A DNA stretch of 64,000 bases from positions 544,001-608,000 of the forward strand of contig CAVPCT010000003.1 in assembly GCA_963702475.1 (NCBI GenBank). Reading direction: 5' to 3'. Made by a program: the position numbers and the translations under genes. Origin of the DNA: an uncultured Thermoleophilia bacterium. Lineage in GTDB: Bacteria > Actinomycetota > Thermoleophilia > UBA2241. Position 1 is the stretch's first letter, and every line of letters begins with the position of its first letter. Below, piece by piece: positions 19,873-43,898 of this stretch. Under the pieces are notes generated by a model. It did no database searches. It was not told the DNA's origin and saw only the letters and a program-made list of their open reading frames with translations.

Positions 19873-19880
19873 GTCCCTCG

Positions 19881-21855: not shown

Positions 21856-21913
21856 ACCAGCGGGCGTCCGCCGTGGGCGCTCTCCATCCCAACGACCAGG
21901 CGGAGGTCACGGT

Positions 21914-25616: not shown

Positions 25617-25724
25617 GCATGCCGGTCCCGATGGCCCCGTCACGGTCTGCGCGCAGGCGGCTGCGCGGCGCACGACCGGACGGGGCGCAGGATGCGCGCC
25701 CGCGCGACGCGAGGAGAAGACGGA

Positions 25725-26703: not shown

Positions 26704-26731
26704 TGTGACTCACTACCAAGGGGGACCACGG

Positions 26732-28111
26732 ATGGCTTCTGAGTACGACATGGGCACGTCCCGCCTCGTCACGCGGCGCGACTTCCTGAGGACCGGCGTG
26801 CTCGCCGGCGCCGCGCTCGGCGTAGGGGGCGCCCTGACCGGTTCGCTCGCCGCTTGCGGCACCGTGAGCGAGGACTCGGGTGGCACCAGCAGCGGGAGCA
26901 GCTCCGGCGCCGAGGGCCGCGAGCTCAAGATCGGTTTCGTCACGCCGCTCACCGGGCCGCTCGCCTCGTTCGGCATTCCGGACGCGTGGTGCGTGAAGCA
27001 GTGGGAGGCCGCCGTCGCGGACGGCCTCAAGTGCGGCGACGGCCAGGTCCACCCCATCAAGTTCATCGTGAAGGACACACAGTCGGACACCAACCGCGCC
27101 GCGCAGGTGACCGGCGACCTCATCACCAACGACGGCTGCGACATCATCATGGCGGCTTCCACAGCCGACACCGTGCCGCCGGTGGCCGACACGTGCGAGG
27201 CCATGGCCGAGCCGTGCGTCACCAACGACTGCCCGTGGCAGGCGTACTTCTTCGGCCGCGGCGGCGACCCCGCCGTGGGCTTCGAGTGGACCTATCACAG
27301 CTGGTGGGGACTGGAGGGAATCACCGCGACGTTCGTCTCCATGTGGGACTCGATCAAGACCAACAAGAAGGTCGCCGAGATGTGGCCCAACGACGGCGAC
27401 GGCCTCGCCTGGGCCGATGAGAAGACGGGCCAGCCGCCGGTCCTCAAGGCCGGCGGCTACACCATCATCGACGGCGGCCGCTACCAGGACCTCACCGACG
27501 ACTTCACGCCGCAGATCGCGAAGTTCAAGGCGGCCGGCGCCGAGATCCTGAGCGGCGTCATGCTGCCCCCCGACTTCACCAACTTCTGGAAGCAGTCGCT
27601 GCAGCAGGGCTTCAATCCCACCATCGCCACCGTGGGCAAGGCGCTCCTGTTTCCGCAGTCGCTGGAGGCGCTCGGCGACGTCGGCTACAACCTCTCCAGC
27701 GAGTGCTGGTGGTCGCCGAACCACCCGTTCAAGTCCTCGCTGACCGGCCAGACCTGCAAAGAGATCGCCGACCAGTACGAGGCGGACAACAGCGCGCAGT
27801 GGACGCAGCCGATCCTGCACTACGCCATCTTCGAGGTCGTCGCCGACGCCCTCAAGCGCGCGACGAACGTGGACGACAAGGCCGTCATCCGCGACGCCGT
27901 CGCCTCCACCGACATGGAGACCATCGGCGGCCGCATCACGTGGGACAGCGGTGACAAGGCGCTCAACCCGGTCCCGAACGTCTGCACCACCCCCATCACC
28001 GGCGGCCAGTGGGTCAAGGGCGAGAAGTACCCGTACGACCTGGTGGTAGTGAACAACTCGCAGGCTCCCGAAGTCCCGGTACAGGCCGAGCTGCAGCCGC
28101 TCCAGTACTGA
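26732..28111 (+). CDS. Liv-type ABC substrate-binding Tat lipoprotein 1
   Basis: TRRDFL Tat motif, LAAC lipobox, KIGFVTPLTGPLA, PBP1 fold signature. Confidence 0.9.
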   Translation: MASEYDMGTSRLVTRRDFLRTGVLAGAALGVGGALTGSLAACGTVSEDSGGTSSGSSSGAEGRELKIGFVTPLTGPLASFGIPDAWCVKQWEAAVADGLKCGDGQVHPIKFIVKDTQSDTNRAAQVTGDLITNDGCDIIMAASTADTVPPVADTCEAMAEPCVTNDCPWQAYFFGRGGDPAVGFEWTYHSWWGLEGITATFVSMWDSIKTNKKVAEMWPNDGDGLAWADEKTGQPPVLKAGGYTIIDGGRYQDLTDDFTPQIAKFKAAGAEILSGVMLPPDFTNFWKQSLQQGFNPTIATVGKALLFPQSLEALGDVGYNLSSECWWSPNHPFKSSLTGQTCKEIADQYEADNSAQWTQPILHYAIFEVVADALKRATNVDDKAVIRDAVASTDMETIGGRITWDSGDKALNPVPNVCTTPITGGQWVKGEKYPYDLVVVNNSQAPEVPVQAELQPLQY

Positions 28112-28540: not shown

Positions 28541-31500
28541 ATGGCGACGCGAGGGATGCGGCGGGCGGCGCGCACGCTGGACAGGGCGAAGGGCAAGCTC
28601 GCCGCTATCCAGTTCGCGGCCGCGCTGTCCGGCCTTGAGGTCCTGCTGCGCACCACGGCCGCGCGGCACCCGCGGTTCGCTGCGCGGCTCAGGCAGCGCG
28701 ACCTGGTCGCGCTGATCCGCCTGGCCGACGGCAGCATCGCCCGTGCGTACTCCATCCGTGACGGCAGGGTCCGTTCCCGGTCGGGCCTGCACCCGTCGCC
28801 CGACCTCACGATGACCTTCGACTCGGCGGAGGTCGCCAACCGCGTGATGCGGCCTGACCGCGACTACCTCGAGTTCATCGACGCGCTCAAGAACTTCCAG
28901 ATGCACGTCGAGGGCCCCGACGATCTCGCCGTGTGGTTCTCGGAGACGCTCCAGTCGCTGCTCAGCGCCGGTCTCGAGTTCGGCACCGACGCGGGCGAAG
29001 GCGTGCGCCGCTACACGAGTAACACCAACGGCGGGCCCGGTCTTCGTCTACGTGCGAGGACGGCCGGATCCTGCGCATCACGCCAATCGAGTTCGACGCG
29101 GATGATGCGCAGCCGTGGACCATCCACGCACGCGGCACGGCGTTCACGCCGCCGCGCAAGACCACCGTCAGTTCGCACACGCTGGCCTGGAAGTCGCTGA
29201 TCTACTCGCCCGATCGCCTGCTCTACCCGATGAAGCGCGTGGACTGGGACCCGGACGGCGAGCGCAACCCGCAGAACCGCGGCGTCTCCGGATACGAGCG
29301 CATCGGCTGGGACGAGGCGCTCGACCTGGTGGTCGCGGAGATCAAGCGCGTGAAGCGCGAGCACGGGCCGGGCGCCATCATGAACGGCAGCGGCTCGCAC
29401 CACACCTGGGGCGTGCTCGGCTACTGGCTGAGCGCCCGCATCCGCTTCTTCAACATGCTGGGCTGGACCCCTGTGATGCACAACCCCGACAGCTGGGAGG
29501 GCTGGTACTGGGGCGCCGCCCACCATTGGGGCCAGACGGCGCGAAACGGCGGTGGCGAGACCTACGGCACGGTGGAGGACCTGCTGCGGCACGCGGAGAT
29601 GGTCGTGTTCTGGTCGTCCGACCCGGAGGCCACGAGCGGCGTGTATGGCGCGCACGACGGGACGATCCGCCGGCAGTGGCTCAAGGATCTCGGCATCCCG
29701 CTCGTGCACATCGACCCATACCACAACCACACGGCGTCCTGGATGGGGGGCAAGTGGCTGGCGCCGCGGCCGGGGACGGACAGCGCGCTCGTGCTGGCGA
29801 TCGCGCATGTGTGGATGACGGAGGGTCTCTACGACGCGGAGTACGTCGCCGAGCGGACCGTCGGGTTCGAGAAGTGGCGCGCCTACGTCCTCGGCGAGGA
29901 GGACGACGTCGCCAGAACGCCGGAGTGGCAGGAGGCAGAGACCGGCGTGCCCGCGCGCGAGGTGCGTGCGCTCGCGCGCGCGTGGGGCAAGAAGAAGACC
30001 TACCTCGCCGCCGGCGGCCTCGTCGGCTTCGGCGGCGCCTGCCGCACCGCCACCGGCACTGACTGGGCCCGCGGCGTGGTCTGCCTCATGGCCATGCAGG
30101 GTCTCGGTAAGCCGGGCGTGAACATGGGCTGCCTGCAACAGGGCACGCCGCTCGACACGCACTTCTTCTTTCCGGGGTACGCCGAGGGCGGTTACTCCGG
30201 TGACCTCTACGGCACCGCACTGAGCATCAACATGTACCAGCGCATGCCGCAGCTGCCCACCGTCAACACGGTGTCCCAGGTCGTGCCACGCCTCAGGATC
30301 CCCGAGGCCGTCATGGACGGCCACGTGGAGAGCTGGCCCACGGATTCGAAGTCGATCGAGGGCCAGTTCATGCGCTACGAGTACCCGGCCCCCGGTCACA
30401 GCGAGGTCAAGCTGTACTACAAGTACGGCGGCTCGCACTTCGGCACCATGGTCGACACCAACCGCTACGCGCGCATGTACCGCTCGGACAAGCTGGAGTG
30501 CGTCGTGAACCAGGCCATCTGGATGGAGGGCGAGACGAAGTTCGCCGACCTCATCCTGCCGGCGTGCACCAACTTCGAGCGCTGGGACATCAGCGAGTCC
30601 GCCAACTGCGGCGGCTACATCCAGCACGCCTACACGCAGTGCAACCACCGCGTGCTGGTCATGCAGCACAAGTGCATCGAGCCGCTCGGCGAGTCGCGCT
30701 CCGACCACCAGATCTTCCTCGACATCGCCACGCGGCTGGGCCTGGGGTCCATGTACTCCGAAGGCGTCACCGAGCTGGACTGGTGCAAGCGTCTCTTCGA
30801 CGGCACCGACCTGCCGCGGCGCGTCGGCTGGAAGGAGTTCCTGAAGAAGGGCTACTACGTGGTGCCGGCGCCGCCGGAGGAGCGGCGCGACCCCGTCTCG
30901 TACCGCTGGTTCGCCGAGGGCCGGCAGAAGGACACGCCGGAGCTCACGCCGCTGCCGGCCGACTACACGGGGGACTACGGGTACGGGCTCCAGACGCAGT
31001 CGGGCAAGCTCGAGTTCGAGGCGTCGAGCCTCAAGCGTTTCGACGCGGACGACCCCGAGCGCCCGCCGCTCATGAAGTACGTGCCGGCGTGGGAGGGTCC
31101 GCACGCCGCGGAGCTGTTCGCGAAGTACCCGCTGCAGCTCATCACCCCGCACCCCCGGCACAGCTTCCACACGCAGAGCGACGGCAAGCGCGCGGTGGTG
31201 AACGACGTCAAGGACCACCGCGTGCTGGTGGACGGCTACTACTACTGGGTGGTGCGGGTGAGCCCCGCCGACGCGGCGGCCCGGGGTCTGCGGCACCACC
31301 AGCTGGTCAAGGTCTTCAACGACCGCGGAGCGGTGATCTGCGCGGTCCAGCTGACGGAACGCGTCCCGCCCGGTACAGTGCACGCATACGAGTCGTCGGC
31401 CGTCTACGAGCCCATCGGCGAGCCGGGTGAGTCCCCGGACAGGGGCGGGTGCATGAACACGCTCACGCCGGGGCGCAGCATCATCCGCGCGTCGCACTCC

Positions 31501-31554
31501 CTGGCTGCGAACTCCTGCCTCGTGCAGGTGGAGGCCTGGACGCCGGACGACTGA
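28541..31554 (+). CDS. Transhydroxylase-like molybdoenzyme large subunit with N-terminal SCP2-like domain (paralog 3); two +1 frameshifts near 29039 and 29058
   Basis: ORF 28541 runs into TSNTNGGP; removing two G restores GGPVFVYVRDGRILRITP in frame with ORF 29230-31554 (SHHTWG, NPDSWEGWYWG, FPGYAEGG, NCGGY). Confidence 0.82.
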
Positions 31555-31616
31555 AGGACCGGGGCTGTACGCCCGCGGGGCCGGAGGCCCGGCGGGCGTA
31601 CGAAAGGGGTCGTCAG

Positions 31617-32411
31617 ATGGCACGAGCGACGGACGGACGCGGGGTCGACGCGGGGGGTGGGTCAGACAAGGGCGCCATGCAGGTGGTCACGAGGGCCGCC
31701 GCGGTGCTGGGCGCTCTCGCCGAGCCAGGCGGCGGCCGCAGTCTCGGGCAGCTGGCCGATCGCACCGGCCTGCCCAAGACGACGGTGCACCGCATCTGCA
31801 CCGCTCTCGAGAGCGTCGGGTACGTGCAGGTGGATCCGGCCACGGGACAGCGCGAGCTCGGCCCGGCGCTGCTGCGTCTCGCGGTGATCGGCCGGCGCGA
31901 CCTGCGCAGCGTTCTCGAGCCGCACCTGGCGCGCCTCTCCCACGACCTCAACGAGACGGTGGACCTCGCCGTGCTGGACGGAGGCAGCATCCTGTTCGTG
32001 GCCCAGCACCCCGCGCCGGAACGCGAGCTCATGGCCATCGCCAGGGTCGGGTTCCGCTTCCCCGCGTCGAGCATGGCCAGCGGCAAGGTGCTGCTGGCGC
32101 GACTGTCCGATGCGGAGCTCCGGCGCATGCTCCCATCGCGCCTTGAGCCGACCATCGACGGGCGCGTGAAGTCGCGCGACGAGTTCCTGCGCGAACTGGG
32201 GGAGGTGCGCCTCACCGGACTGGGCTACGAGCGCGAAGAGCTCCGGCACGGTATCTGCGCGGTGGCCGTCGCCGTGGTCGACGTGGACGGGCGCGCGGCC
32301 TCCGTGGCCGTACCGATGCCGGCCTCAAGGTTCACGCAGAGCGAGCAGGACGTGGCGGCGGCGCTGGTGCGCCTGCGCGACGACATCCAGGCCGAGCTCG
32401 GCGGCCGTTGA
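31617..32411 (+). CDS. IclR family transcriptional regulator 2
   Basis: QVVTRAA, GLPKTTVHRIC, NETVDLA, SGKVLLA. Confidence 0.92.
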   Translation: MARATDGRGVDAGGGSDKGAMQVVTRAAAVLGALAEPGGGRSLGQLADRTGLPKTTVHRICTALESVGYVQVDPATGQRELGPALLRLAVIGRRDLRSVLEPHLARLSHDLNETVDLAVLDGGSILFVAQHPAPERELMAIARVGFRFPASSMASGKVLLARLSDAELRRMLPSRLEPTIDGRVKSRDEFLRELGEVRLTGLGYEREELRHGICAVAVAVVDVDGRAASVAVPMPASRFTQSEQDVAAALVRLRDDIQAELGGR

Positions 32412-32556: not shown

Positions 32557-33318
32557 ATGAACGTGTTCGACATAGCCGGGCTGCGCGCGCTCGTGGTCGG
32601 GGCCGGCGGCCTCGGCGGCGCCATCGCCGCCGGCTTCGCGGCGCACGGCGCCGACGTGGCGGTCGCCGACGTGGACCTGGCGCGCGCCCGGGCGCTCGCC
32701 GCCCAGCTCGAGGCCGACGAAGTGGTGGCCGCCGGGGTGCGGGTGGACGTGACCGACGAGCACTCGGTCGCGGCCATGGTCGCGGCCGCCGTGGGCGCTC
32801 TCGGTGGCCTGGACACCCTCGTCAACGCCGCCGGCGTCACGGTGCGCAAGCGCGCCGAGGACCTCTCGCCGGGTGAGTGGCGCCGCATCCTCGACGTCAA
32901 CGCCACCGGCACGTTCCTGTGCTGCCAGGCCGCCGGCGCGCACATGGCAGGCTCCGGCGGCGGCGCCATCGTCAATCTGTCCTCGGTGCGCGGCCGCTAC
33001 GGGGCCACCTTCGGACAGGCGGAGTACTCGGCCAGCAAGGGCGCGGTGGACTCGCTCACGCGCTCGCTGGCCGCCCAGTGGGCCGAGCTCGGCATCCGCG
33101 TGAACGCGGTGGCGCCGACCTTCGTCGAGACCGATCTGACGCGCGCGGTCCTGGCCGACGAGGCCTTCGCGACCACGCTGCGCGCGAGCATCCCCATGGG
33201 GCGGTGGGCGGAGACCGCGGACGTCGTCGGCCCGGTGCTGTTCCTGGCTTCACCTGCATCCGCGTTCGTCACCGGACAGATCCTCTACGTGGACGGCGGT
33301 CTGACGGCTCGGGTGTAG
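32557..33318 (+). CDS. Short-chain dehydrogenase/reductase (likely NAD-preferring)
   Basis: GAGGLG, acidic ADVD after beta2, NAAG, YSASK. Confidence 0.9.
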   Translation: MNVFDIAGLRALVVGAGGLGGAIAAGFAAHGADVAVADVDLARARALAAQLEADEVVAAGVRVDVTDEHSVAAMVAAAVGALGGLDTLVNAAGVTVRKRAEDLSPGEWRRILDVNATGTFLCCQAAGAHMAGSGGGAIVNLSSVRGRYGATFGQAEYSASKGAVDSLTRSLAAQWAELGIRVNAVAPTFVETDLTRAVLADEAFATTLRASIPMGRWAETADVVGPVLFLASPASAFVTGQILYVDGGLTARV

Positions 33319-33372
33319 CTGCGCACGGCGGCTCTCCGCCCCTACGGCCCGCCCGCACCGGGCCGCCGAGTC

Positions 33373-33436
33373 TTGACCTCCTCCCGCCCCTGCACTACTG
33401 TTCGCATCACGGAATAGCTGTTCCGCATCGTGGTCA
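33373..33436 (+). promoter_or_regulatory. Promoter with tandem IclR-type operator
   Basis: TTGACC-N17-TACTGT, then ttcgcatcacggaa and gttccgcatcgtggtc; shares 17 bp (agctgttccgcatcgtg) with the 16250 promoter. Confidence 0.7.
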
Positions 33437-33602
33437 CCACCGTGTGAGGCAGCCGGTCGAGGAGGGCGGCCTCGAGACCGCGTGCACGACGCATCCCGGC
33501 TCCGGCGCGGTCCGCCGGGACGCTCATCGCCGTTCGATCGTCGCAAGTGTCCAGTGCAGCGCCATCCGCGTGGCTGCCGCAGGGAACGAGAGGAGAGGTG
33601 TC

Positions 33603-34400
33603 ATGGAGCGTGAGATCTGGAGCGTGGAGAAGATCCGCAGCCTGTTCGACATGACGGGCAAGACGGCGGTCGTGACCGGCGGCTCGGGGGCGTTCGGCGG
33701 CGAGGCCGCCAAGGCGCTCGCCGCCTACGGCGCCAACGTTGTGGTCACCAGCCGCCGCGCCGAGAGCCTCGAGTCGACCGCCGCCGCCATCAAGGAGGCC
33801 ACCGGCTCCGAGGTGCTGGCCGTGTCGTGCGACTGCGTCGACCCTGAGAGCGTCGAGGCCATGGTCCAGAAGACCGTGGACACGTTCGGCTCCGTCGACG
33901 TCCTCATCACCGCTGCCGGTCAGGCCAACCGCTTCGCCGCCGAGGAGTTCCCCATCGACGAGTGGCAGAAGGTCATGGACTCCCTCGTCAAGGGCACCTA
34001 CCTGTGCTGCCAGGCGGCCGGCAAGCGCATGATCGCCCAGGGCTCCGGCAAGATCATCACCGTCGGCTCCGTGCGCGGCGAGTTCGGGCACCCCGGCGGC
34101 TACTCCGCCTACGGCACCGCCAAGGGCGCCGTCCACCTGCTCACCAAGCAGCTCGCCACCGAGTGGGCCAAGTACCACATCAACGTGAACAGCATCGCCC
34201 CGTGCATCTTCTGGACGCCGCTCACGCAGCAGGTCATCGAGAACCCCGAGCTCAAGGCGATCTTCCTGTCGCGCATCCCTTGGGGCCGCGTGGCCGACCC
34301 CCAGGACTTCATGGGCGCCGTGCTGTACCTGTCGTCGGCCGCATCGGACTTCGTGACCGGCGCCATCATGGCGGTCGACGGCGGCAGCACCGCCGGCTGA
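33603..34400 (+). CDS. SDR, candidate NADPH-dependent phloroglucinol reductase
   Basis: TGGSGAFG, SRR after beta2 (NADP preference), YGTAK; context next to dehydrogenase, cyclase and BKACE. Confidence 0.8.
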   Translation: MEREIWSVEKIRSLFDMTGKTAVVTGGSGAFGGEAAKALAAYGANVVVTSRRAESLESTAAAIKEATGSEVLAVSCDCVDPESVEAMVQKTVDTFGSVDVLITAAGQANRFAAEEFPIDEWQKVMDSLVKGTYLCCQAAGKRMIAQGSGKIITVGSVRGEFGHPGGYSAYGTAKGAVHLLTKQLATEWAKYHINVNSIAPCIFWTPLTQQVIENPELKAIFLSRIPWGRVADPQDFMGAVLYLSSAASDFVTGAIMAVDGGSTAG

Positions 34401-34422
34401 GTCGCGACGCGGCGAGAGGAGG

Positions 34423-35370
34423 GTGACCGTGGCCAAGGAGAAGGTGGCCGTCATCGGCGCCGGCATGATGGGCGTCGGCATCGCGCAGATCTTCGCGCTC
34501 GCCGGGCACGAGGTGGCGCTGCAGGACGCCTTCTCCGAGGCGCTCGAGCGCTCCCCCTCGTCGCTGCGCGCGAACCTCACGTTCCTGGCTGAGAACGGGC
34601 TCGGCCGGCTCGACGACGTCGAGCCGGCCGTGGCTCGCGTGCGCACCACCGCCGACCTGGTGGAGGCGGTGCAGGGCGCGGCCTACGTGGTGGAGTGCGT
34701 CTTCGAGGACCTGGAGCTGAAGCGGGGACTGTTCGAGCAGCTCGACGAGCTGTGCCCGCCGGACACCATCCTGTGCACCAACACCTCGGTGATGAGCATC
34801 ACGCAGATCGCGGAGCGCGCGGTGCACAAGGAGCGGGTCGTCGGCACGCACTTCTGGAACCCGCCGTACCTCATCCCGCTGGTGGAGGTGGTGCGCACCG
34901 CGGACGTGGCCGACGAGGCCGTGGCCCGCGTCATGGACCTGCTGCGCAGCGTGGGCAAGCGACCGATCGACTGCAGAAAGGACGTGCCGGGGTTCGTGGC
35001 CAACCGCCTGCAGCACGCCCTGTGGCGCGAGGCCATCTCTCTCGTGGAGCACGGCATCGCCGACGCGGCCACCGTTGACGAAAGCATCCGCTTCGGCCCC
35101 GGCCTGAGGCTGCCGGTCCTCGCCCCCATGGAGAACGCCGACATGGTGGGCCTGGACCTCACGCTGGCCATCCACCAGTACATCCTGCCTCATCTCGAGG
35201 CGTCGGGAGAGCCGTCGCCGCTGCTCAAGGAGAAGGTGGCGGCCGGCGATCTCGGCTTCAAGACCGGGCACGGGTTCCAGGACTGGCCGCCGGAGAAGGC
35301 GGACGCATCGCGCCGGCGGCTCCTCGGCTACCTGGTGCACGTGCTCACCGACGACGAGAGGGGACGCTGA
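34423..35370 (+). CDS. 3-hydroxyacyl-CoA dehydrogenase family; candidate 3-hydroxy-5-oxohexanoate dehydrogenase
   Basis: GAGMMG, NTS, HFWNPPYLIPLVEV, PGFVANRLQ. Confidence 0.88.
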   Translation: MTVAKEKVAVIGAGMMGVGIAQIFALAGHEVALQDAFSEALERSPSSLRANLTFLAENGLGRLDDVEPAVARVRTTADLVEAVQGAAYVVECVFEDLELKRGLFEQLDELCPPDTILCTNTSVMSITQIAERAVHKERVVGTHFWNPPYLIPLVEVVRTADVADEAVARVMDLLRSVGKRPIDCRKDVPGFVANRLQHALWREAISLVEHGIADAATVDESIRFGPGLRLPVLAPMENADMVGLDLTLAIHQYILPHLEASGEPSPLLKEKVAAGDLGFKTGHGFQDWPPEKADASRRRLLGYLVHVLTDDERGR

Positions 35371-35437
35371 CGGCCGGCGGACGGCGCACCGCGAGGTGCC
35401 GAGCGCCTCGGCCGCGGCGCGCCGCAAGGAGCGCGGG

Positions 35438-36220
35438 GTGAGCGAGCGCCGTGACGGCGTGCAGGTGCTGGAGCGGGCGGCCCAGATGCTTCGCGCGCTC
35501 TCGGCCGAGCCCAAGGGGCTCACGCCCATCGAGCTGGCCGACCGCGTCGGGCTGCCGCGTTCCACGGCGTACCGCATCGTCGGCACCCTGGTCAACGAGG
35601 GCTTCGTGAGGGTGTCGCCCGGCGGCAAGCTCAGTATCGGTCCGGGCCTCATCAGCATCGCCACGGCGGGCCGCCGCGACCTGCGCCACGAGGCCGCGCC
35701 GTACCTCGAGCAGCTCTCGCACGAGCTGCACGAGACGGTCGAGCTCGTGGTGCTGGACGGCGGCGAGGCCCTGTTCACGAACCAGTTCATCTCGTCCCGC
35801 TCGCTGCGCGTGGTCGCGCAGGTGGGGGACCGCTTCCCGCTGTACTGCACGGCCTGCGGCAAGGCCCTGCTTGCCGAGCTCACGCCATCGGAGGCCGTGC
35901 GGCTGATCCCGGCCAGGCTCGAGCAGTACACGCCGCACACCGACGTCGACCGCGCGCGTCTGCTCGAAGAGCTCAACGAGGTGCGTGCCACCGGCGTGGC
36001 CTACGACCACCAGGAACACACCATCGGCGTCTCGGCCGTGGGGGCGGCGATCCGCGACGCGGCAGGCGCGCTGGCCGCGCTCACCGTGGTCATGCCGGCC
36101 GCCCGCCTTGACGGGCACGAGGAGCTCATCGCCGCAGCGGTGCTGCGTGTGCGCGACGAGATCCAGCGGGCGGTGAACGGCGACGCGCCCGCCGCCGGCC
36201 GCGCCGGCGCCGAGTCTTGA
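35438..36220 (+). CDS. IclR family transcriptional regulator 3
   Basis: VQVLERA, GLPRSTAYRI, PLYCTACGKALLA. Confidence 0.92.
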   Translation: MSERRDGVQVLERAAQMLRALSAEPKGLTPIELADRVGLPRSTAYRIVGTLVNEGFVRVSPGGKLSIGPGLISIATAGRRDLRHEAAPYLEQLSHELHETVELVVLDGGEALFTNQFISSRSLRVVAQVGDRFPLYCTACGKALLAELTPSEAVRLIPARLEQYTPHTDVDRARLLEELNEVRATGVAYDHQEHTIGVSAVGAAIRDAAGALAALTVVMPAARLDGHEELIAAAVLRVRDEIQRAVNGDAPAAGRAGAES

Positions 36221-36283
36221 CACTGGCTTCTCGGCGCGGGTAGCGTATCCACGATACGGCGAGTATGTTCCGTATCGCGGACC
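36217..36283 (+). promoter_or_regulatory. Promoter with tandem IclR-type operator
   Basis: TTGACA-N18-TAGCGT, then atccacgatacggc and gttccgtatcgcggacc. Confidence 0.7.
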
Positions 36284-36435
36284 AGCCGAGGGACCGACGG
36301 CCCCTCGTGAAGACATCGGCGCACGAGCCGCCGTTCGCCGCCGTGGGAGGTACGGTTCGTGAGTACCGGCCGCCGGTCCGGGCGCGAATGCCCGGCGGCC
36401 GAGTCAGCAACGAGACGAGGAGAAGAGGGACTGCC

Positions 36436-37395
36436 ATGGGCAACAAGGTATTCGTTGACCTCACACATCCGTTCAGCGCGGAGATCCCTCGGTGGCCGTA
36501 CTTTGTGAAGCCGGTCATCGACTCCATGCACACCCTGGCCAAGGGCGGCGTCCTCACGCAGCGCATCGACTGCGTGCAGCACACCGGCACCCACGCCGAC
36601 GCGCCTCGTCACGTCATGGAGCGCGAGTTCAACGGCAAGCGTGCCCGCTACACGCACGAGATGCCGGTCGACGCGTACACCGGCGACGCCGTCTGCCTCG
36701 ACATCCAGATCGAGAAGTGGGGCCTCATCCTGCCCAGGCACATCGAGGACGCCTGCGAGCGCGCGGACATCAAGCCCGATGAGCTCAAGGGCATGGTCCT
36801 CTGCCTCAACACCGGCATGCATCGCAAGTTCGACGACTCCATGGACTACTACCAGTACTCCTGCGGCACCGGCGTCGAGGCCGGCAGGTGGTTTGTCGAG
36901 AAGCAGGTCAAGTGCGTGGCCATGGACATGCAGGCCCTGGACCACCCTCTCCACACTGCTATGGGCAAGAACGGCCCGCCGCAGATGAACCTCCCCGGCG
37001 CCACCGGCCGCCCGATCACCGAGGAGTACGTCGAGCAGTTCGGCCTCGAGGCCTACGCCGAGTTCGAGAAGGCCGTCTACATCGAGGTGCACGGCCGGGA
37101 GGCCTACGACGCCAAGTTCGGCGACCTCGAGGCCATCGGCCTTGAGGGCACCTGGGAGCCCTGCCACAAGCAGATGCTCGGCCACGGCATCGTGGGCGTC
37201 GAGAACCTCGGCGGCGACCTGGACAAGGTCAAGGGCAAGCGGTTCCGCTTCTTCTGTTTCCCGATCCGCTGGTACATGGGCGACGGCTCCATGGTCCGCT
37301 GCGTCGCCGAGATCGACGAGGCCGACGTCAACGACGTGCCGGATCGCACGTACACCTACGCCGGCACCGGCTATGGTCCCGGAGCCGGCTACTGA
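36436..37395 (+). CDS. Cyclase (kynurenine formamidase-like) family hydrolase; candidate dihydrophloroglucinol cyclohydrolase
   Basis: DLTHP, HTGTHADAPRH, H...LGHGIVGVENLGG, GDGSMVR. Confidence 0.85.
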   Translation: MGNKVFVDLTHPFSAEIPRWPYFVKPVIDSMHTLAKGGVLTQRIDCVQHTGTHADAPRHVMEREFNGKRARYTHEMPVDAYTGDAVCLDIQIEKWGLILPRHIEDACERADIKPDELKGMVLCLNTGMHRKFDDSMDYYQYSCGTGVEAGRWFVEKQVKCVAMDMQALDHPLHTAMGKNGPPQMNLPGATGRPITEEYVEQFGLEAYAEFEKAVYIEVHGREAYDAKFGDLEAIGLEGTWEPCHKQMLGHGIVGVENLGGDLDKVKGKRFRFFCFPIRWYMGDGSMVRCVAEIDEADVNDVPDRTYTYAGTGYGPGAGY

Positions 37396-37526
37396 GGTCC
37401 GCCTTTCGCCCCCAGGGGCCGACAGCGTGGCGCCCGTCGGCGTTCGCCACGGGACGGCACCGACTGCGGCTGGCAGGGTTCGTTTTCGTTCAGAGAAGCC
37501 GGAGACGGCACGAGAAGGAGTGAGGC

Positions 37527-37877
37527 ATGGAAGTCACGCGCTACGACGAGGCCCCGAGCTACGAGGCCCCCGGGCATTTCGATGTGTACGGCCTGCGTGT
37601 GCAGGGCTTCGAGGTCACCAAGACCCGCAACTTCTCCGTGAGTATCTCCCACTTCCTCCCGCGTGGCGGCTGCGAGTACGGCGCCACCCCGATCGAGAAG
37701 GTGTACTTCGTGCTCGACGGTGAGGTCACGGTGAAGACCGAGGAGGGCGAGGTCGTGCTCAAGAAGTACGACTCCATCTACCTGGCCCCGAACGAGGCCC
37801 GTTCTATCCTGAACCACACCAACTCGCCGGCGACGATGCTGGTCGCTATGCCGTACCCCGAGCCGCGCGAGTTCTGA
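37527..37877 (+). CDS. Cupin domain protein
   Basis: SHFLPRGG...EKVYFVLDGE...DSIYLAPNEAR. Confidence 0.85.
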   Translation: MEVTRYDEAPSYEAPGHFDVYGLRVQGFEVTKTRNFSVSISHFLPRGGCEYGATPIEKVYFVLDGEVTVKTEEGEVVLKKYDSIYLAPNEARSILNHTNSPATMLVAMPYPEPREF

Positions 37878-37930
37878 CGGGGACCCGGCCGCTCCGCGGC
37901 CACGCACGCACCACCCTGGAGGAGGCCACC

Positions 37931-38761
37931 ATGACCAACCCCATCATCACGGCGGCGCTGACCGGTCCTGTCGCCACCAAGGCCGACAACCCCGGGCTGC
38001 CGGGCGGCGTGGCCGAGATCGCCGAGGCCGCGAAGGCGTCGTACGACGCCGGCGCGGCGGTCATCCACATCCACCTGCGCGACGACCGCGGCGAGATGAC
38101 CGCGGACCTCGACGTGGCGAAGCGCACCGTCGAGGCCGTCCGTGAAGTCTGCCCCGGCATCGTCCAGCTCTCCACCGGCGGCCTGCAGTTCACCTACGAG
38201 GAGCGCATGAGCCTCGTCGAGGCCAGGCCGGCCATGGCCACACTGAACCCGTGCACGATGACGTTCGGCATGGCCGAGTTCAAGAACCCGCCCAAGCAGA
38301 TGATGGAGCTGGCGGCGCGCATGATCGAGCTCGGGGTCAAGCCGGAGGTGGAGATCTACGACACCGGCCACCTCGACTTCATGCTGTACCTGCTGAAGAA
38401 GGAGCTGCTGCTGGAGCCACTGCAGGTGTCCTTCGTGATGGGCGTGCACGGCGGCATGCGCGGCGACCCCGCGCTGCTCTCCTGGCTGGTGCGCGAGTTG
38501 CCTGAGGGCACGAGCTGGCAGGTCATCGCCGTGGCCGGGGCCAACCTGCCCATGACCACCATCGGCCTCGCCATGGGCGGCAACGCGCGCACCGGCATGG
38601 AGGACACGCTGACACTCGAGAAGGGCGTGCCGGCGGAATCCAACGCGCAGCTTGTCGAGCGTCTCGTACGCATCGCCCGCTCGATGCAGCGCGAACCGGC
38701 CGCCGTGGCCGAGGTCGTCGAGCGGCTGAGGCTGCACCCCGAGCTGGTCAACCCGCAGTGA
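37931..38761 (+). CDS. BKACE/DUF849 beta-keto acid cleavage enzyme; candidate triacetate cleavage enzyme
   Basis: ITAALTG, GAAVIHIHLRD, QLSTGG, GGNARTGMEDT. Confidence 0.9.
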   Translation: MTNPIITAALTGPVATKADNPGLPGGVAEIAEAAKASYDAGAAVIHIHLRDDRGEMTADLDVAKRTVEAVREVCPGIVQLSTGGLQFTYEERMSLVEARPAMATLNPCTMTFGMAEFKNPPKQMMELAARMIELGVKPEVEIYDTGHLDFMLYLLKKELLLEPLQVSFVMGVHGGMRGDPALLSWLVRELPEGTSWQVIAVAGANLPMTTIGLAMGGNARTGMEDTLTLEKGVPAESNAQLVERLVRIARSMQREPAAVAEVVERLRLHPELVNPQ

Positions 38762-38768
38762 TCGTTGG

Positions 38769-38886
38769 GTCCGCTTAGCGGAACGGTAAGACCCGGATAT
38801 TCCGCTACGCGGACCGGCATCCTTGACAGCGGGTACGCGGGCAGTATGATGCCCGTATCGTGGGAACGACCGTCCGCATGGCGGAT
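38769..38886 (+). promoter_or_regulatory. Promoter with four IclR-type operator copies
   Basis: gtccgcttagcggaac, ttccgctacgcggac, TTGACA-N16-TATGAT, gcccgtatcgtggga, gtccgcatggcggat. Confidence 0.72.
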
Positions 38887-39036
38887 GGCAGCAGGGGAAG
38901 ATCCGGCGGCGCCCGGCGGCGGAAGAGTCATCGGCCGGCGCGTGTGCCCGGAAGGAGCAAGGACCCAAGGGGGGGTCCGACGGCAGAGGCTCGTGGTGAG
39001 CTTTCGCCTGCCCGAGGACCAGGACAAGGAGGCGGC

Positions 39037-40422
39037 ATGAGCTCTGACGAACGCACCACCAACGAGACCGGCATGCACAAGCCGATCACGCGGCGCGACT
39101 TCCTCAAGGTCGCCGGCGTGGGCGGCGCCGCGCTCGGCCTTGCCGGCGGTCTCAGCGGCGCTCTCGCGGCGTGCGGCACCACCAGCGCCACCGACGACGG
39201 CGGCGGAAGCACCTCCGGCGCCGAGGGGCGCGAGATCAAAGTCGGCTTCGTCGCGCCGCTCACCGGGCCGCTGGCCGCCTTCGGTGAGGCCGACCAGTTC
39301 TGCGTCGACCAGTGGAACGCCGCCGTCAAAGACGGCCTCGCGACCGCCGACGGCGCCGTGCATCCCATCAGCATCATCATGAAGGACTCGCAGTCCGACT
39401 CGAACCGGGCGGCGCAGGTGGCCGGCGACCTCATGACCAACGACGCCGTCGACATCATGATGGTGGCCTCCACGCCCGACACGGTCGTGCCCGTCGCGGA
39501 CCAGGCCGAGGCGCTCGGCGTGCCCTGCGTCTCCAACGACTGCCCGTGGCAGGCGTACTACTTCGGCCGTCAGAAGGACCCCGCCAACCCCGTGCCGTTC
39601 AAGTGGACCTACCACTTCTTCTGGGGAACCGGCGAGGCCGCGAACGTCTTCATCGACCTCTGGGACAAGCTCGACACAAACAAGAAGGTCGGCGTGATGT
39701 GGCCGAACGACGCCGACGGCAACGCCTGGTCTGACCCCAAGACCGGCATGCCGAGCTTCTACGGGCCGGCCGGCTACACCTTCGTGAACCCCGGCAAGTT
39801 CCAGAACGGCACAGAGGACTTCACCGCCCAGATCGGCAAGTTCAAGGCGGCCGACTGCCAGATCCTCAACGGCGTCATGATCCCGCCGGATTTCACCAAC
39901 TTCTGGAAGCAGTCCTACCAGCAGGGCTTCAAGCCTGTCGTCGCGACCATGGCGAAGGCCATCCTCTTCCCGTCGGCCCTCGAGGCGCTCGGCGAGATCG
40001 GCTACGGCCTCACCTCTGAGGTCTGGTGGTCGCCGAACCACCCGTACAAGTCGTCGCTCACCGGCGAGACCTGCCAGCAGATAGGCGACGCGTACGAGAC
40101 GTCCACCGGCAAGCAGTGGACCCAGCCGATCATGCATTACGCCGTGTTCGAGGTCGTCGCCGACGCCATCAAGCGCACCGAGAACATCGACGACAAAGAA
40201 TCGATCCTGAGCGCCGTCGTGGGGACCAGCGTCGAGACCATCTGCGGCCCCGTCAACTGGGGCGGCGGCACCAACAACCCTGTCCAGAACGTCAGCACGA
40301 CCCCGCTCGTGGGCGGCCAGTGGATCAAGGGCACCAAGTACCCCTTCGACCTGGCCATCGTCGGCAACTCGCTCGCCGCCGACATCCCGCTCACGGGGGA
40401 GCTGCAGCCGATCGAGTACTGA
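39037..40422 (+). CDS. Liv-type ABC substrate-binding Tat lipoprotein 2
   Basis: TRRDFL, LAAC; clear paralog of 26732-28111 (NDCPWQAY, PPDFTNFWKQS). Confidence 0.9.
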   Translation: MSSDERTTNETGMHKPITRRDFLKVAGVGGAALGLAGGLSGALAACGTTSATDDGGGSTSGAEGREIKVGFVAPLTGPLAAFGEADQFCVDQWNAAVKDGLATADGAVHPISIIMKDSQSDSNRAAQVAGDLMTNDAVDIMMVASTPDTVVPVADQAEALGVPCVSNDCPWQAYYFGRQKDPANPVPFKWTYHFFWGTGEAANVFIDLWDKLDTNKKVGVMWPNDADGNAWSDPKTGMPSFYGPAGYTFVNPGKFQNGTEDFTAQIGKFKAADCQILNGVMIPPDFTNFWKQSYQQGFKPVVATMAKAILFPSALEALGEIGYGLTSEVWWSPNHPYKSSLTGETCQQIGDAYETSTGKQWTQPIMHYAVFEVVADAIKRTENIDDKESILSAVVGTSVETICGPVNWGGGTNNPVQNVSTTPLVGGQWIKGTKYPFDLAIVGNSLAADIPLTGELQPIEY

Positions 40423-40500: not shown

Positions 40501-41226
40501 GTGACCGTAGTCCTGGAGACAGTCGGTCTCTGCAAGTCCTTCGGCGGCGTCAAGGTCATCGACGACCTGAGCGTCAAGCTGTACGGGGGAGAAGCGCTGG
40601 GCATCGTCGGGCCGAACGGCGCCGGCAAGACCACCCTGTTCAACCTGATCACCGGCGTCTACCGGCCCGACGAAGGCCGGGTCATGTACAAGGATCGGGA
40701 CGTCACGCACGTGAGGCGTCACGACCGCTGCCGCCAGGGCATCGGTCGCACGTTCCAGATCCCCAGGCCGTTCGGCGACATGAGCGTGTTCGAGAACGTC
40801 CTGGTCTGCGCCGCTTACGGTCGCAACCTGAGCGAGCGCGCGAGCTACCGGCGCTGCGTCGAGACGCTCGAGCTCACCGGCCTCGCGGCCAAGGCCAACA
40901 AGCAGGCGGGCGCCCTCCCGCTGCTCGACCGCAAGCGGCTCGAGCTCGCGAGGGCGCTCGCCGGCGACCCCACCGTGCTCCTGCTGGACGAGATCGCCGG
41001 AGGCCTCACCGACTCCGAGGTCGAGGACCTCATCCAGACGGTCAAGGACCTGCACGCACAGGGCATCTCCATCATCTGGATCGAGCACATCGTCCACGCC
41101 CTGCTCGCCGTGGTGCAGCGCATCGTCGCCATCAGCTTCGGGCGCAACCTCATCGAGGGTGACCCCAACGAGGTCATGTGCAGCGACGAGGTGCAGGCCT
41201 GTTACATGGGGGGGACGCCGCTATGA
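40501..41226 (+). CDS. LivG-like ABC ATPase
   Basis: GPNGAGKTT, RTFQ, LLLDEIAGGL, IEH. Confidence 0.92.
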   Translation: MTVVLETVGLCKSFGGVKVIDDLSVKLYGGEALGIVGPNGAGKTTLFNLITGVYRPDEGRVMYKDRDVTHVRRHDRCRQGIGRTFQIPRPFGDMSVFENVLVCAAYGRNLSERASYRRCVETLELTGLAAKANKQAGALPLLDRKRLELARALAGDPTVLLLDEIAGGLTDSEVEDLIQTVKDLHAQGISIIWIEHIVHALLAVVQRIVAISFGRNLIEGDPNEVMCSDEVQACYMGGTPL

Positions 41227-41921
41227 CCGTCCTCGAGCTCAAGGAAGTCGACGTCTTCTACGGCGACTTCCAGGCCCTCTTCAAGGTCTCGTTCAAGGTC
41301 GAAGGGGGCCAGACCTTCGCCTGTATCGGCGCCAACGGCGGCGGCAAGTCCACGCTGCTCCGCACCATCGCTGGTTCCATGCGTCCCCGCTCGGGCGAGG
41401 TCCTGTTCCACGGCAAGCCGGTCGACTCCGTCCCTGCCCACGAGCGCGTCAAGATGGGCATCGCCCTGGTCCCCGAGGGGCGCCGCGTCTTCCCCAGCCT
41501 GAGCGTGCTGGAGAACCTGCAGATCGGCGCCTACGGCGGGCGCAAGGGCGACTGGAGCGTGGAGTCGGTGCTGGAGCTGTTCCCGCTGCTGAAGCCGCTG
41601 CTCAAGCGCCAGGCCTCGAGCCTGTCCGGCGGTGAGCAGCAGGCCCTGGCCATCGGGCGGGCGCTCATGTCCAACCCGGAGCTCCTGTTGCTGGACGAGG
41701 TCTCGCTGGGCCTCGCTCCCGTGGTCATCAAGCGCATCTACGAGGCCATGGTGCACCTGGTGGGCACCGGAACGACCATCGTCGTGGTCGAGCAGGACGT
41801 GCAGCACGTGCTCACGGTCGCCGACTACGTCGCCTGTTTCCTCGAGGGCCGCATCAGCCTCGAGGGCAAGCCGAGCGAACTGACCTCGGAAGCTATCACT
41901 GCAGCCTACTTCGGGATGTGA
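41223..41921 (+). CDS. LivF-like ABC ATPase
   Basis: GANGGGKST, VPEGRRVF, LSGGEQQ, VEQ. Confidence 0.92.
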   Translation: MTVLELKEVDVFYGDFQALFKVSFKVEGGQTFACIGANGGGKSTLLRTIAGSMRPRSGEVLFHGKPVDSVPAHERVKMGIALVPEGRRVFPSLSVLENLQIGAYGGRKGDWSVESVLELFPLLKPLLKRQASSLSGGEQQALAIGRALMSNPELLLLDEVSLGLAPVVIKRIYEAMVHLVGTGTTIVVVEQDVQHVLTVADYVACFLEGRISLEGKPSELTSEAITAAYFGM

Positions 41922-41925: not shown

Positions 41926-42798
41926 ATGACTTGGGTCAACGTCGCTCTTCAGGGCATTCTCCTGGGCGGGTTGTACGCCCTGTTCGCCACCGGCCTCGCC
42001 CTCGTGTTCGGCGTGATGCGCATGGTGAACCTCGCGCACGGCGACCTCGGCATCCTCGCCGCCTTCGTCTGCCTGTTCGTCGTGCAGTCGCTCAGCCTGG
42101 GCGTGATCTGGGCGGGCGCGATCACGATCGTCATCATGTTCGTCGTCGGCTATCTGCTCCAGCGGGGGCTGCTCAACTTCACCCTGGGCAGTGACGACAC
42201 CCGGCCGATCGTGGTGACGTTCGGGTTGTCCATCATCATCCAGAACGGCCTCATCATGTGGTGGTCGGCCGACTCCCAGGGCCTCGACGCAGGCGCCATC
42301 GAGAACGCCAGCATCACCATCAGCAAGCAGCTCGCGATCGGCTGGTTCCCACTGCTCGTGTTCGTCCTCTCCATCGTCGTGATCGCCGTGCTGCAGCTCT
42401 TCCTCAACCGCACCAAGATGGGCCGCGCCTTCCGCGCCACGTCGGACGACCGCGACGCGGCGGAGCTCATGGGCATCAACAACAAGCACATCTACGGGCT
42501 CGCCATGGCGGTCGCATTGGCCATCGTGGCGCTGGCCGGCGTGCTCCTCGCGGTGCGCAGCACGTTCGACCCGACGCAGGGGTCCTTTCGCCTGATCTTT
42601 GCCTTCGAGGCCGTGATCATGGGTGGCATGGGCTCCATCTGGGGCACGCTGCTGGGCGGCGTCGTGCTGGGTGTCGCGCAGACCGTCGGCTCCCAGGCGT
42701 TCGGCGCCGGGTGGGGCCTGTTCGTCGGCCACGTCGTGTTCCTCACCGTTCTGGCGCTGCGGCCCAGCGGCTTCTTCGCGAAGACGGTGACGGCATGA
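41926..42798 (+). CDS. LivH-like ABC permease
   Basis: GLALVFGVMRMVNLAHG, GRAFRA, MGGMGSIWG. Confidence 0.92.
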   Translation: MTWVNVALQGILLGGLYALFATGLALVFGVMRMVNLAHGDLGILAAFVCLFVVQSLSLGVIWAGAITIVIMFVVGYLLQRGLLNFTLGSDDTRPIVVTFGLSIIIQNGLIMWWSADSQGLDAGAIENASITISKQLAIGWFPLLVFVLSIVVIAVLQLFLNRTKMGRAFRATSDDRDAAELMGINNKHIYGLAMAVALAIVALAGVLLAVRSTFDPTQGSFRLIFAFEAVIMGGMGSIWGTLLGGVVLGVAQTVGSQAFGAGWGLFVGHVVFLTVLALRPSGFFAKTVTA

Positions 42799-43898
42799 CG
42801 GCCCAGGACAAACCCATGAGCATCACCGACTTCACCGTCTCGCGCTCCCGGAACATGCACCGCTGGGTGCTCATCATCTCGATCCTCGTCGTGATCGGTC
42901 TCGCCAGCGTGCCGTTCTGGTCAACCGTGGCCGTGTGCCGCACCATGGTGACCTTCTTCACCCTGCTCGCCCTGGCTCAGATGTGGAACCTGCTCGGCGG
43001 CTACGCCGGCCTCGTCTCCGTCGGCCAGCAGGCGTACATCGGCCTCGGCGCCTACGGCCTCTGGCTCATCGGCGACGTGCTCGGCCTGAGCCCGTTCATC
43101 GCCGTCTTCCTGGCCGGCGGCCTGGCTGCCCTCATCGCGCTGCCCGTGGCCCCGCTCATGTTCCGCCTCAAGGGCGGGTACTTCGCCATCGGCACGTGGG
43201 TGGTGGCCGAGGTCCTGCGTCTGATCGTCGCCAACATCGACGCCACCGGCGGCGGCTCCGGCAAGACGGTCATCTCCGCCGCCAAGCTGCCGCTCACCAC
43301 CCGCATCCCCGGCACGTACTGGCTGGCCATGACCGTGGCCGTGGGCTCCATCCTTCTCGTGTGGTTCCTGCTGCGCTCGCGCAACGGCCTGGCGCTCACC
43401 GCCATCCGTGACAACGAGCTTGCCGCCCAGAGCTCCGGCGTCAACGTGTTCCGCACGAAGCTGTACGTGTACCTGCTGTCCGCGTTCGGCTGCGGCGTCG
43501 TCGGCGCCGTGGTCGCCATGAACCTGCTGCGCATCCAGCCGGCGGCGGCGTTCAGCATCAACTGGACCGCCTACGCCATCTTCATCGTGGTGATCGGCGG
43601 CTTCGGCACCATCGAAGGCCCGATCATCGGGTCGGTCATCTACTTCGCGCTCCTGCAGACCCTGAGTCAGTACGGCACGCTGTACATGCTGCTGCTCGGC
43701 GTCATCGCCGTCATCATGGTGACGCTGGCCCCCAAGGGCATCTGGGGCTGGGTCGTGAAGCGCTGGGACCTGCACCTGTTCCCGGTGCGCCGCAACCTGA
43801 TGCTCGACGCATCGGTGCTCGGTCCACCGGACGAACCCAAGAAGCCGGCGGCGACTGGGGTCGCCTCCGGCAACGGCGCGGCCACAGAGGCCGGCTGA
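42795..43898 (+). CDS. LivM-like ABC permease
   Basis: WNLLGGYAGLVSVGQ, GGYFAIGT, AIRDNE, GGFGTIEGP. Confidence 0.92.
   Translation: MTAQDKPMSITDFTVSRSRNMHRWVLIISILVVIGLASVPFWSTVAVCRTMVTFFTLLALAQMWNLLGGYAGLVSVGQQAYIGLGAYGLWLIGDVLGLSPFIAVFLAGGLAALIALPVAPLMFRLKGGYFAIGTWVVAEVLRLIVANIDATGGGSGKTVISAAKLPLTTRIPGTYWLAMTVAVGSILLVWFLLRSRNGLALTAIRDNELAAQSSGVNVFRTKLYVYLLSAFGCGVVGAVVAMNLLRIQPAAAFSINWTAYAIFIVVIGGFGTIEGPIIGSVIYFALLQTLSQYGTLYMLLLGVIAVIMVTLAPKGIWGWVVKRWDLHLFPVRRNLMLDASVLGPPDEPKKPAATGVASGNGAATEAG

Follow-up and report, generated by a model that had tools for sequence, protein, structure and literature searches.

A candidate trihydroxybenzene-catabolic island in an uncultured Thermoleophilia bacterium, with a recurrent small cupin and a second reductase related to phloroglucinol reductase

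What does the gene cluster at positions 32557–38761 of a 64,000-nucleotide stretch of DNA from an uncultured Thermoleophilia bacterium degrade, and what might the small cupin and the additional short-chain dehydrogenase/reductase (SDR) encoded within it contribute? The stretch (the window in what follows) covers positions 544,001 to 608,000 of contig CAVPCT010000003.1, GenBank assembly GCA_963702475.1, and a preliminary description of it had suggested that the cluster encodes a complete pathway for phloroglucinol. Phloroglucinol is the funnel for the oxygen-free mineralization of flavonoids and tannins, a process that bears on how peat and sediments store carbon and on polyphenol metabolism in the gut. 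In Clostridium scatologenes, it is degraded in turn by phloroglucinol reductase (PGR), an Mn-dependent dihydrophloroglucinol cyclohydrolase of the cyclase family (DPGC), a dehydrogenase (TfD) and a BKACE-family lyase (TAL), and co-located homologues of the four enzymes are described in many bacteria (Zhou et al. 2023, mBio, PMC10470551). Judged from homology and gene order, the region is likely to be an island for trihydroxybenzene catabolism in an anaerobic member of the Thermoleophilia. Its core is a new member of this known pathway, made a variant by a divergent BKACE, by the clade to which the additional SDR (SDR1) belongs and by a link to transhydroxylase genes. The suggested four-enzyme route stood up to comparison: the cyclase has the Trp20/Tyr22 pair of DPGC, the dehydrogenase has the TfD residues, the other SDR (SDR2) falls in the PGR clade and the BKACE is without the Glu of Kce. 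DPGC and TfD match the published enzymes strongly, SDR2 less so and BKACE least of all; beyond the published scheme, the cupin and SDR1 would be new, and both are treated here as leads. A literature search, which covered few subscription journals, found no paper joining Thermoleophilia with the phloroglucinol pathway.

The window (G+C ~70%) comes from a 4.3-Mb metagenome-assembled genome (MAG; completeness 93.8%, contamination 6.5%), and near-identical loci are titled as uncultured Thermoleophilia or Actinomycetota MAGs. Reading frames were picked by third-position G+C and then confirmed with Pfam, and all seven genes of the cluster were found on the + strand at the stated coordinates:

32557..33318, + strand: SDR1, NAD-type PGR paralogue (adh_short_C2, E 2.7e-63)
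33603..34400, + strand: SDR2, NADP-type, predicted PGR (adh_short_C2, E 2.4e-54)
34423..35370, + strand: predicted (S)-3-hydroxy-5-oxohexanoate dehydrogenase, TfD (3HCDH_N, E 2.2e-59)
35486..36220, + strand: IclR regulator 3, alternative starts 35396 and 35438 (domain search)
36436..37395, + strand: predicted DPGC; open reading frame (ORF) from 36265, likely start 36436 (Cyclase PF04199, E 8.6e-31)
37527..37877, + strand: Rv1717-type small cupin, 116 aa, without canonical metal ligands (Cupin_2, E 3.2e-07)
37931..38761, + strand: BKACE, predicted to cleave triacetate, divergent subtype (PF05853, E 1.4e-87)

NCBIfam provided no equivalog-level name for any of these seven cluster proteins. For comparison, the best 80 of 529 confirmed related stretches from a genome-wide scan were taken as the set of DPGC loci, 57 of which are well flanked (≥5 kb on either side); labels such as L045 denote numbered relatives' loci in the comparison set.

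The firmest assignments are those of the cyclase and of the 3HCDH-family dehydrogenase. The substrate pocket specific to C. scatologenes DPGC (CsDPGC) has Trp20 and Tyr22 where isatin hydrolase has Ile32 and Leu34 (PMC10470551); counted from 36436, the window cyclase has Trp20 and Tyr22, the same residues with the same numbers. His49, His53, Asp55 and His59 of the cyclase are invariant in a 12-sequence alignment of homologues with a mean column identity of 78%. The 80 best DPGC relatives are 82–96% identical to it (82–89% for cluster cyclases of other phyla), and five CsDPGC peptides given in the proteomics supplement of PMC10470551, 90 residues in all, show 16 mismatches to the window cyclase when compared by eye. 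For C. scatologenes TfD (CsTfD), the same paper describes a catalytic His143 together with Ser122 and Asn194 (PMC10470551). The window dehydrogenase has Ser122, His143 and Asn194 at the CsTfD numbers, is 49–63% identical to the TfDs of other clusters and carries an Asp (L-Q-D) after strand β2. We regard both predicted assignments, DPGC and TfD, as strong. Across phyla, DPGC (82–89%) is far more conserved than the neighbouring genes (33–63%). At three loci (L092, L098 and L102), the cyclase slot is occupied by a paralogue 37–38% identical to DPGC, with neighbours that are 66–86% identical and in conserved synteny, and other relatives have a cyclase type of 72–73% identity; the cyclase thus appears to be exchangeable in syntenic clusters.

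SDR2 had been described as NADP-type, and its motif, a T-S-R-R segment after strand β2 with its Arg, agrees with this. A tree of 118 SDRs (quick IQ-TREE run, LG+G4, SH-aLRT support only), with an outgroup of just 20 other SDRs, all from this genome and the compared loci, placed all 74 SDRs of DPGC clusters in a single clade apart from the outgroup (SH-aLRT 97). This clade includes SDR2 and the Clostridium cluster SDR of L089, which matches PDB 5g4k with 351 bits; we take 5g4k/5g4l to be the PGR of Clostridium sp. ATCC BAA-442, the PDB table naming it only 'SDR-family oxidoreductase'. The S-V-R-G segment at the catalytic Ser, already recognized as common to SDR1 and SDR2, is shared beyond chance: the Arg two residues past the catalytic Ser is present in 74/74 cluster SDRs, in 22/22 members of the SDR1 clade and in both of two further paralogues, and in 0/20 of the other SDRs. 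As the Arg occurs in all members and in none of the outgroup, the segment is a signature of the PGR superclade. A Tyr three residues before the catalytic Tyr (Y-x-x-Y) is likewise found in all 74 cluster SDRs, SDR2 included, and at least 43 of them have an Arg-type and at least 25 an Asp-type cofactor site. SDR2 and 5g4k have in common S-x-R, Y-x-x-Y, the Arg-type cofactor site and, via L089, the clade; they differ in the Ser-to-Tyr spacing, which is one residue longer in SDR2. Within the clade, SDR2 stands on a separate branch, 35–42% identical to the Bacillota cluster SDRs, 5g4k-like ones included. By direct similarity, the identification of SDR2 as PGR is weaker; its tree placement with the PGR clade resolves this. 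In an Actinomycetota cluster (L045:7256-8941), the cupin is followed by two tandem SDRs of the PGR clade, the first Arg-type and 62% identical to SDR2, the other Asp-type (54%), which provides an independent example of reductase doubling.

The BKACE is the least secure of the four predicted enzymes. An alignment of 13 sequences that includes it shows no variation at the Zn-ligand columns (His46, His48 and Glu224), and the gene order cyclase–cupin–BKACE–binding protein–ABC is kept in relatives. The change of Glu14 in Kce to Trp16 in C. scatologenes TAL (CsTAL) is described in PMC10470551; the window BKACE is without this Kce-defining Glu. The column is variable between lineages, with Trp in Bacillota clusters, Met in other Actinomycetota and Ile in the Desulfobacterota type, which fits another, triacetate-related model. 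The window BKACE, with Val at this position, constitutes a lineage-specific subtype.

The genes upstream of the cluster suggest what might feed it. The earlier statement that 'paralog 3' and IclR regulator 2 precede SDR1 was corroborated, paralog 3 being a transhydroxylase-type molybdenum enzyme: its main part (29230–31554) scores 953.7 bits against the large subunit of the Pelobacter pyrogallol hydroxytransferase 4v4c (chain residues 80–870). The flanking features on both sides of the cluster are:

12742..13806, − strand: BthL-like Fe-S small subunit 1, beside AthL1 (Fer4_11 and CarboxypepD_reg)
13575..16250, − strand: AthL-like molybdenum enzyme 1 (AthL1), a distant paralogue, ORF start over-extended (Molybdopterin, Molydop_binding, AhtL-like_1st)
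16409..21243, − strand: MobB, ModC, ModB, ModA and MobA-MobB, molybdate uptake and cofactor genes (Pfam)
21857..24518, + strand: AthL-like molybdenum enzyme 2 (AthL2), in two frames with the switch near 22800 (match to an intact orthologue)
24416..25336, + strand: BthL-like Fe-S small subunit 2 (BthL2; Fer4_11; 72% identity over 307 aa to the L093 subunit beside AthL2)
25611..26528, + strand: IclR regulator 1 (IclR_C, E 3e-45)
26705..28111, + strand: solute-binding protein 1 (Peripla_BP_6)
28664..31554, + strand: transhydroxylase-type large subunit (paralog 3), in two frames with the switch at ~29035–29057 (953.7 bits to 4v4c)
31449..32411, + strand: IclR regulator 2, true start probably after 31449 (IclR_C, E 5.1e-33; helix-turn-helix from ORF residue 80)
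38860..40422, + strand: solute-binding protein 2 with a twin-arginine (TAT) signal, conserved 3′ of BKACE in relatives
40501..41226 and 41178..41921, + strand: two ABC ATPases (Pfam)
41926..42798 and 42798..43898, + strand: two ABC permeases (BPD_transp_2; second E 6.1e-31)

As a close relative of the Pelobacter transhydroxylase thus lies directly upstream, the island probably leads from pyrogallol via phloroglucinol to acetoacetate and acetoacetyl-CoA. Compared with the Pelobacter system, there are three paralogues in the window and ~13 in the genome. AthL2, with an AhtL-like first domain and a BthL-like Fe-S subunit encoded next to it (24416–25336), is alike in organization; the copy beside SDR1 is without a small-subunit gene of its own, BthL2 following AthL2; and AthL1 (448 bits to 4v4c) is distant. 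The molybdate-transport and cofactor genes lie between AthL1 and AthL2.

Several observations weigh against this reading of the island. The best solved match of SDR2 is gluconate 5-dehydrogenase (1vl8, 181.6 bits), and 5g4k comes fourth with 150 bits, under several sugar-acid dehydrogenases; SDR2 also stays under every NCBIfam equivalog cut-off. In the PDB search, the usual Actinomycetota cluster SDR gives a similar picture, and PGR is not singled out for either. The PGR motif for the 2′-phosphate of NADPH is given as T-x-R-(S/N) (PMC10470551), and the T-S-R-R of SDR2 keeps its Thr and Arg but has Arg in place of the Ser or Asn. The BKACE has Val (T-G-P-V) where CsTAL has Trp16, is just 33–43% identical to the BKACEs of other clusters and scores 270 bits against the Kce model, compared with 311–329 bits for those of other clusters. 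Finally, the reading frame is broken in this assembly in two of the three transhydroxylase-type genes: the N-terminal part of paralog 3 (28664–29038) is in frame 2 and the remainder in frame 1, and an intact orthologue of AthL2 matches 21857–22819 in frame 2 and 22782–24512 in frame 3. The frame breaks were compared with short-read contigs of relatives (92–99% alike, four runs). In all four runs, the contigs have two bases fewer at 29035–29057, which would put paralog 3 in one frame, and in two of the four, one base fewer at 22814, which would do the same for AthL2; the breaks are either assembly errors or strain-specific lesions. There are other fragmented-looking genes in the genome, such as a 179-aa 3HCDH piece on contig 2, so that indel errors of the assembly are likely.

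In the proposed scheme, a binding-protein-dependent ABC importer would bring in the substrate, and the transhydroxylase-type molybdenum enzymes would convert pyrogallol, and possibly other hydroxybenzenes, to phloroglucinol. SDR2 would then reduce phloroglucinol to dihydrophloroglucinol with NADPH, the Mn-type cyclase DPGC would open the ring of dihydrophloroglucinol by retro-Claisen hydrolysis to (S)-3-hydroxy-5-oxohexanoate, the NAD-type TfD would convert this to triacetate, and the Zn-type BKACE would cleave triacetate onto acetyl-CoA, giving acetoacetate and acetoacetyl-CoA; the three IclR regulators would control the units. The window and the C. scatologenes cluster share the same four enzyme families in one co-directional cluster with a small cupin in each. 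They differ in gene order and in transport, a major-facilitator transporter in C. scatologenes being replaced by the ABC importer in the window, and the window, unlike C. scatologenes, has IclR regulation, the extra SDR1 and transhydroxylase genes directly upstream.

The first of the two leads, SDR1, is 41% identical to SDR2. It had been called NAD-type, and its A-D-V-D segment after strand β2, with its Asp, bears this out and does not match T-x-R-(S/N). In the tree, the SDR1 clade (22 rows) forms one group with two further paralogues of this genome and the PGR clade (support 99) and is placed as the sister of the PGR clade. All 22 members are Asp-type. None retains the PGR-invariant Tyr of Y-x-x-Y, which is Gln in 21, and the F-W/R-T/S segment of the PGR clade is F-V-E-T in 19 of the 22. 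Because Asp-type members of the PGR clade keep both segments, these differences point to the substrate, not the cofactor. The genomic context of SDR1 is also distinctive, with a transhydroxylase-type gene ≤3 kb away in 17 of 23 loci; in L098 it is 7 kb away, and in L021 the flank is too short. Within DPGC loci, SDR1 is found only in the window's own relatives, and a match at E ≤1e-60 is present in 36 of the 301 genomes of the class.

We consider it nearly an even chance, and our best guess, that SDR1 is an NADH-dependent reductase of a different hydroxylated ring (e.g., hydroxyhydroquinone or a tetrahydroxybenzene). Two points weigh against the gene-context part of this argument: the four most distant members of the SDR1 clade are without a transhydroxylase-type neighbour, and the loci that link SDR1 with transhydroxylase genes all come from one family or class and so are not independent. 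The contexts of the distant members in L091, L096, L097 and L101 are heterogeneous. The homologue search for SDR1 gave no substrate clue or wider taxonomy, its best 120 matches all being ≥71% identical with generic names, and 5g4k is absent from the best 60 PDB matches of SDR1.

The main competitor for SDR1 is that it serves as a second, NADH-dependent PGR, balancing the NADH from the NAD-type TfD while SDR2 runs on NADPH; we think this possible but rather unlikely. The cofactor sites would suit it (Asp-type in SDR1, Arg-type in SDR2, and Asp in the L-Q-D of TfD), and S-x-R, the signature of the PGR superclade, is retained in SDR1. L036 and L042, moreover, are without SDR1; at the corresponding position, behind the molybdenum enzyme and IclR2, they have just one cluster SDR, of the Asp type. 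An NADH/NADPH imbalance is discussed as a real constraint on the pathway in PMC10470551. Such a change of cofactor, however, needs no loss of the PGR segments, since at least 25 of the 74 cluster SDRs are Asp-type with Y-x-x-Y and F-W/R-T/S intact, whereas both segments have been lost in the SDR1 clade (Gln in 21/22; F-V-E-T in 19/22). SDR1 can also adjoin AthL-BthL away from the rest of the pathway, as in L095, where it stands with AthL-BthL and an IclR gene and with no SDR2, cupin or cyclase nearby. The earlier suggestion that the extra SDR acts on another ring compound is thus upheld in so far as SDR1 is a PGR-family paralogue that is without two PGR-invariant segments and usually close to a transhydroxylase gene; the choice of another ring over phloroglucinol itself stays conditional, as an NADH-dependent PGR isoenzyme is possible. 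SDR1 represents a sister family of PGR linked to transhydroxylase genes, and a reductase activity that has so far been an orphan may be assigned to it.

The second lead, the cupin, recurs in such clusters as a fifth gene. A homologue is present in 49 of the 80 DPGC loci (39 of the 57 well-flanked ones), from Actinomycetota, Bacillota, Desulfobacterota and one Pseudomonadota MAG, nearly all without SDR1, and counting by hand from the gene-order table of the 80 placed it directly before the SDR in 30 loci. The C. scatologenes cluster has it as well: CSCA_1081, a 113-aa Cupin_2 protein detected by mass spectrometry according to the tables of PMC10470551, precedes CSCA_1082 (CsPGR) and CSCA_1083 (CsDPGC). 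A term search did not find the word 'cupin' in the main text of that paper, and the literature search described above found no paper tying the cupin to phloroglucinol catabolism. The preliminary description had put the cupin in one undescribed branch with SDR1; its presence in C. scatologenes and in DPGC clusters of several phyla without SDR1 does not support this pairing.

The cupin family is small, with 157 representatives at E ≤1e-10 among 1.84 billion, and 10 longer representatives scanned with Pfam are bicupins, one of them an SLH-anchored bicupin, with none fused to a pathway enzyme. The AlphaFold model of the window cupin has a pLDDT of 94.4. By sequence, its closest solved relative is TM1459, a manganese cupin of Thermotoga maritima (PDB 1vj2 and variants; E ~1e-6 to 4e-5), and by fold the model matches it with a TM-score of 0.82–0.84 at 25–27% identity, followed by the polyketide cyclase RemF and by DddK. 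The metal-binding His 52, 54, 58 and 92 of TM1459 correspond to Gly52, Thr54, Lys58 and Arg92 in the window cupin, and none of these four columns has a His majority in 108 family rows. The conserved residues are instead Tyr12, His17, Ser41, Glu57, Tyr60, Arg92 and Asn96; in the 108 rows, His17 is present in 93, Tyr60 in 103, Arg92 in 90 and Asn96 in 92. Metal-free RmlC-type cupin epimerases use a His/Tyr/Arg site next to a carbonyl. The role as an isomerase or tautomerase that the preliminary description gave to the cupin would fit the missing metal ligands together with the conserved His, Tyr and Arg. There may also be room for a helper at the DPGC step, given the low kcat of CsDPGC (~1 s−1, at least 20-fold under those of its neighbours; PMC10470551). 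Our best guess, a tentative one, is that the cupin works without a metal as a keto-enol tautomerase or isomerase on one of the 1,3-dicarbonyl intermediates (dihydrophloroglucinol or triacetate).

What speaks against such a role is that the pathway, characterized in vitro, is reconstituted by four recombinant enzymes without the cupin (PMC10470551). In addition, the cupin is missing in 18 of the 57 well-flanked loci, including the complete-looking TAL-SDR-TfD-DPGC clusters L054, L055 and L059; such genomes thus either do without it or encode it outside the cluster. Both observations would suit a cupin that stands off the main line, binding or detoxifying a side product (e.g., triacetic acid lactone, or acetylacetone formed spontaneously from triacetate) or acting as a non-catalytic ligand binder, as would the lack of a constant pathway neighbour (the SDR, BKACE or cyclase, depending on lineage) and the closeness of its modelled structure to RemF, a cupin acting on a poly-β-keto chain. 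This alternative is nonetheless somewhat doubtful, as the strong polar conservation (His17, Tyr60, Arg92 and Asn96) points to catalysis or to very specific binding, and in the window the gene is embedded between the cyclase and BKACE with gaps of 131 and 53 bases.

The tautomerase reading of the cupin and the different-ring reading of SDR1 can be joined in a more speculative proposal, which we hold to be unlikely as a whole: the cupin would be the missing fifth enzyme of the pathway, a metal-independent tautomerase that hands diketo dihydrophloroglucinol or triacetate to the slow C–C cleavage, and the SDR1 clade would be the NADH-dependent reductase for a second trihydroxybenzene. A hydroxyhydroquinone reductase activity has reportedly been described in Desulfovibrio inopinatus, and we know of no gene for it. 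If the proposal were true, these Thermoleophilia, with ~13 transhydroxylase paralogues, would be broad anaerobic polyphenol degraders of soils and sediments.

The genome as a whole points to uncultured Thermoleophilia as polyphenol specialists. It contains, besides the ~13 AthL-like paralogues, three BKACEs of the window subtype and four PGR-like SDRs, arranged in separate modules. The module on contig 2 (354878–360071, L105) is without a cyclase; it combines a 3HCDH fragment and an AthL-like gene with relatives of SDR1 (48% identical), of the window cupin (40%) and of the window BKACE (69%). Contig 9 has two modules (89171–96594, L106, and 175536–182161, L107), one comprising an IclR gene, a PGR-like SDR, a thiolase, two tandem cyclases (30–34% identical to DPGC), a family III CoA-transferase and an enoyl-CoA hydratase, and a further one comprising a BKACE (73% identical), an AthL-like enzyme and two SDRs. 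Such a genome would be consistent with a lineage in which a single type of pathway has been copied to serve several ring substrates, and no other observation supports the earlier idea of another branch so well. It also makes substrate diversification plausible for the window itself, where the unit of SDR2, TfD, cyclase, cupin and BKACE might degrade another ring, such as a substituted phloroglucinol or another cyclic 1,3-dione, and resemble the published pathway by family only. The divergence of SDR2 and BKACE from the characterized enzymes and the replacement of DPGC by a paralogue 37–38% identical to it in L092, L098 and L102 would be in keeping with this. We nevertheless judge it improbable for the window unit: its cyclase is of the DPGC type that is 82–89% identical across phyla and has the CsDPGC pocket residues, its TfD keeps the CsTfD residues, and immediately upstream lies a gene closely related to that of the phloroglucinol-making enzyme.

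The weakest alternative is that the cupin is a β-galactosidase unrelated to the ring pathway. The sole experimental paper on a member of its family reports this activity for Rv1717 of Mycobacterium tuberculosis, which hydrolyses pNP-β-Gal with a Km of 0.382 mM and is connected there with biofilm dispersal (PMC7873859), and the paper weighs to that extent against a pathway role. The sole NCBIfam match of the window cupin is NF050094, named beta-D-galactosidase (E 5e-30, 112 of 113 model positions), which places it in the same family; its 104 bits, however, are under the 175-bit cut-off of the model. The other four genes of Rv1714–Rv1718, we presume, encode an SDR, fadB3, a cyclase and a DUF849/BKACE protein. 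The five are predicted to form one operon (PMC2724278), yet PMC7873859 has no mention of Rv1714, Rv1716, Rv1718, Rv1719 or 'operon', and the reported activity has no link to the gene context found in the window. With cupins located inside phloroglucinol clusters of several phyla and of C. scatologenes, and with small cupins (TM1459, RemF and DddK) and no glycosidase among the fold matches listed, a galactosidase is very improbable. The gene is conserved in such clusters, including the type cluster, and the only function published for the family ignores this context.

Among the cupin relatives, P0128 is a 450-aa protein with a double cupin and three S-layer-homology repeats; it would be anchored to the cell surface, a curious parallel to Rv1717, which is reported to be located in the cell wall. 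In the remainder of the window, an antisense ORF (42921–43775, − strand) is probably spurious, having no Pfam match and overlapping the + strand permease at 42798–43898. With no sign of membership in the ring pathway, the genes at 7263–12549 (a molybdopterin oxidoreductase with an Fe4S4 domain, a 4Fe-4S subunit, an NrfD-type membrane subunit and an Rrf2 regulator) look like a polysulfide- or tetrathionate-reductase-type complex.

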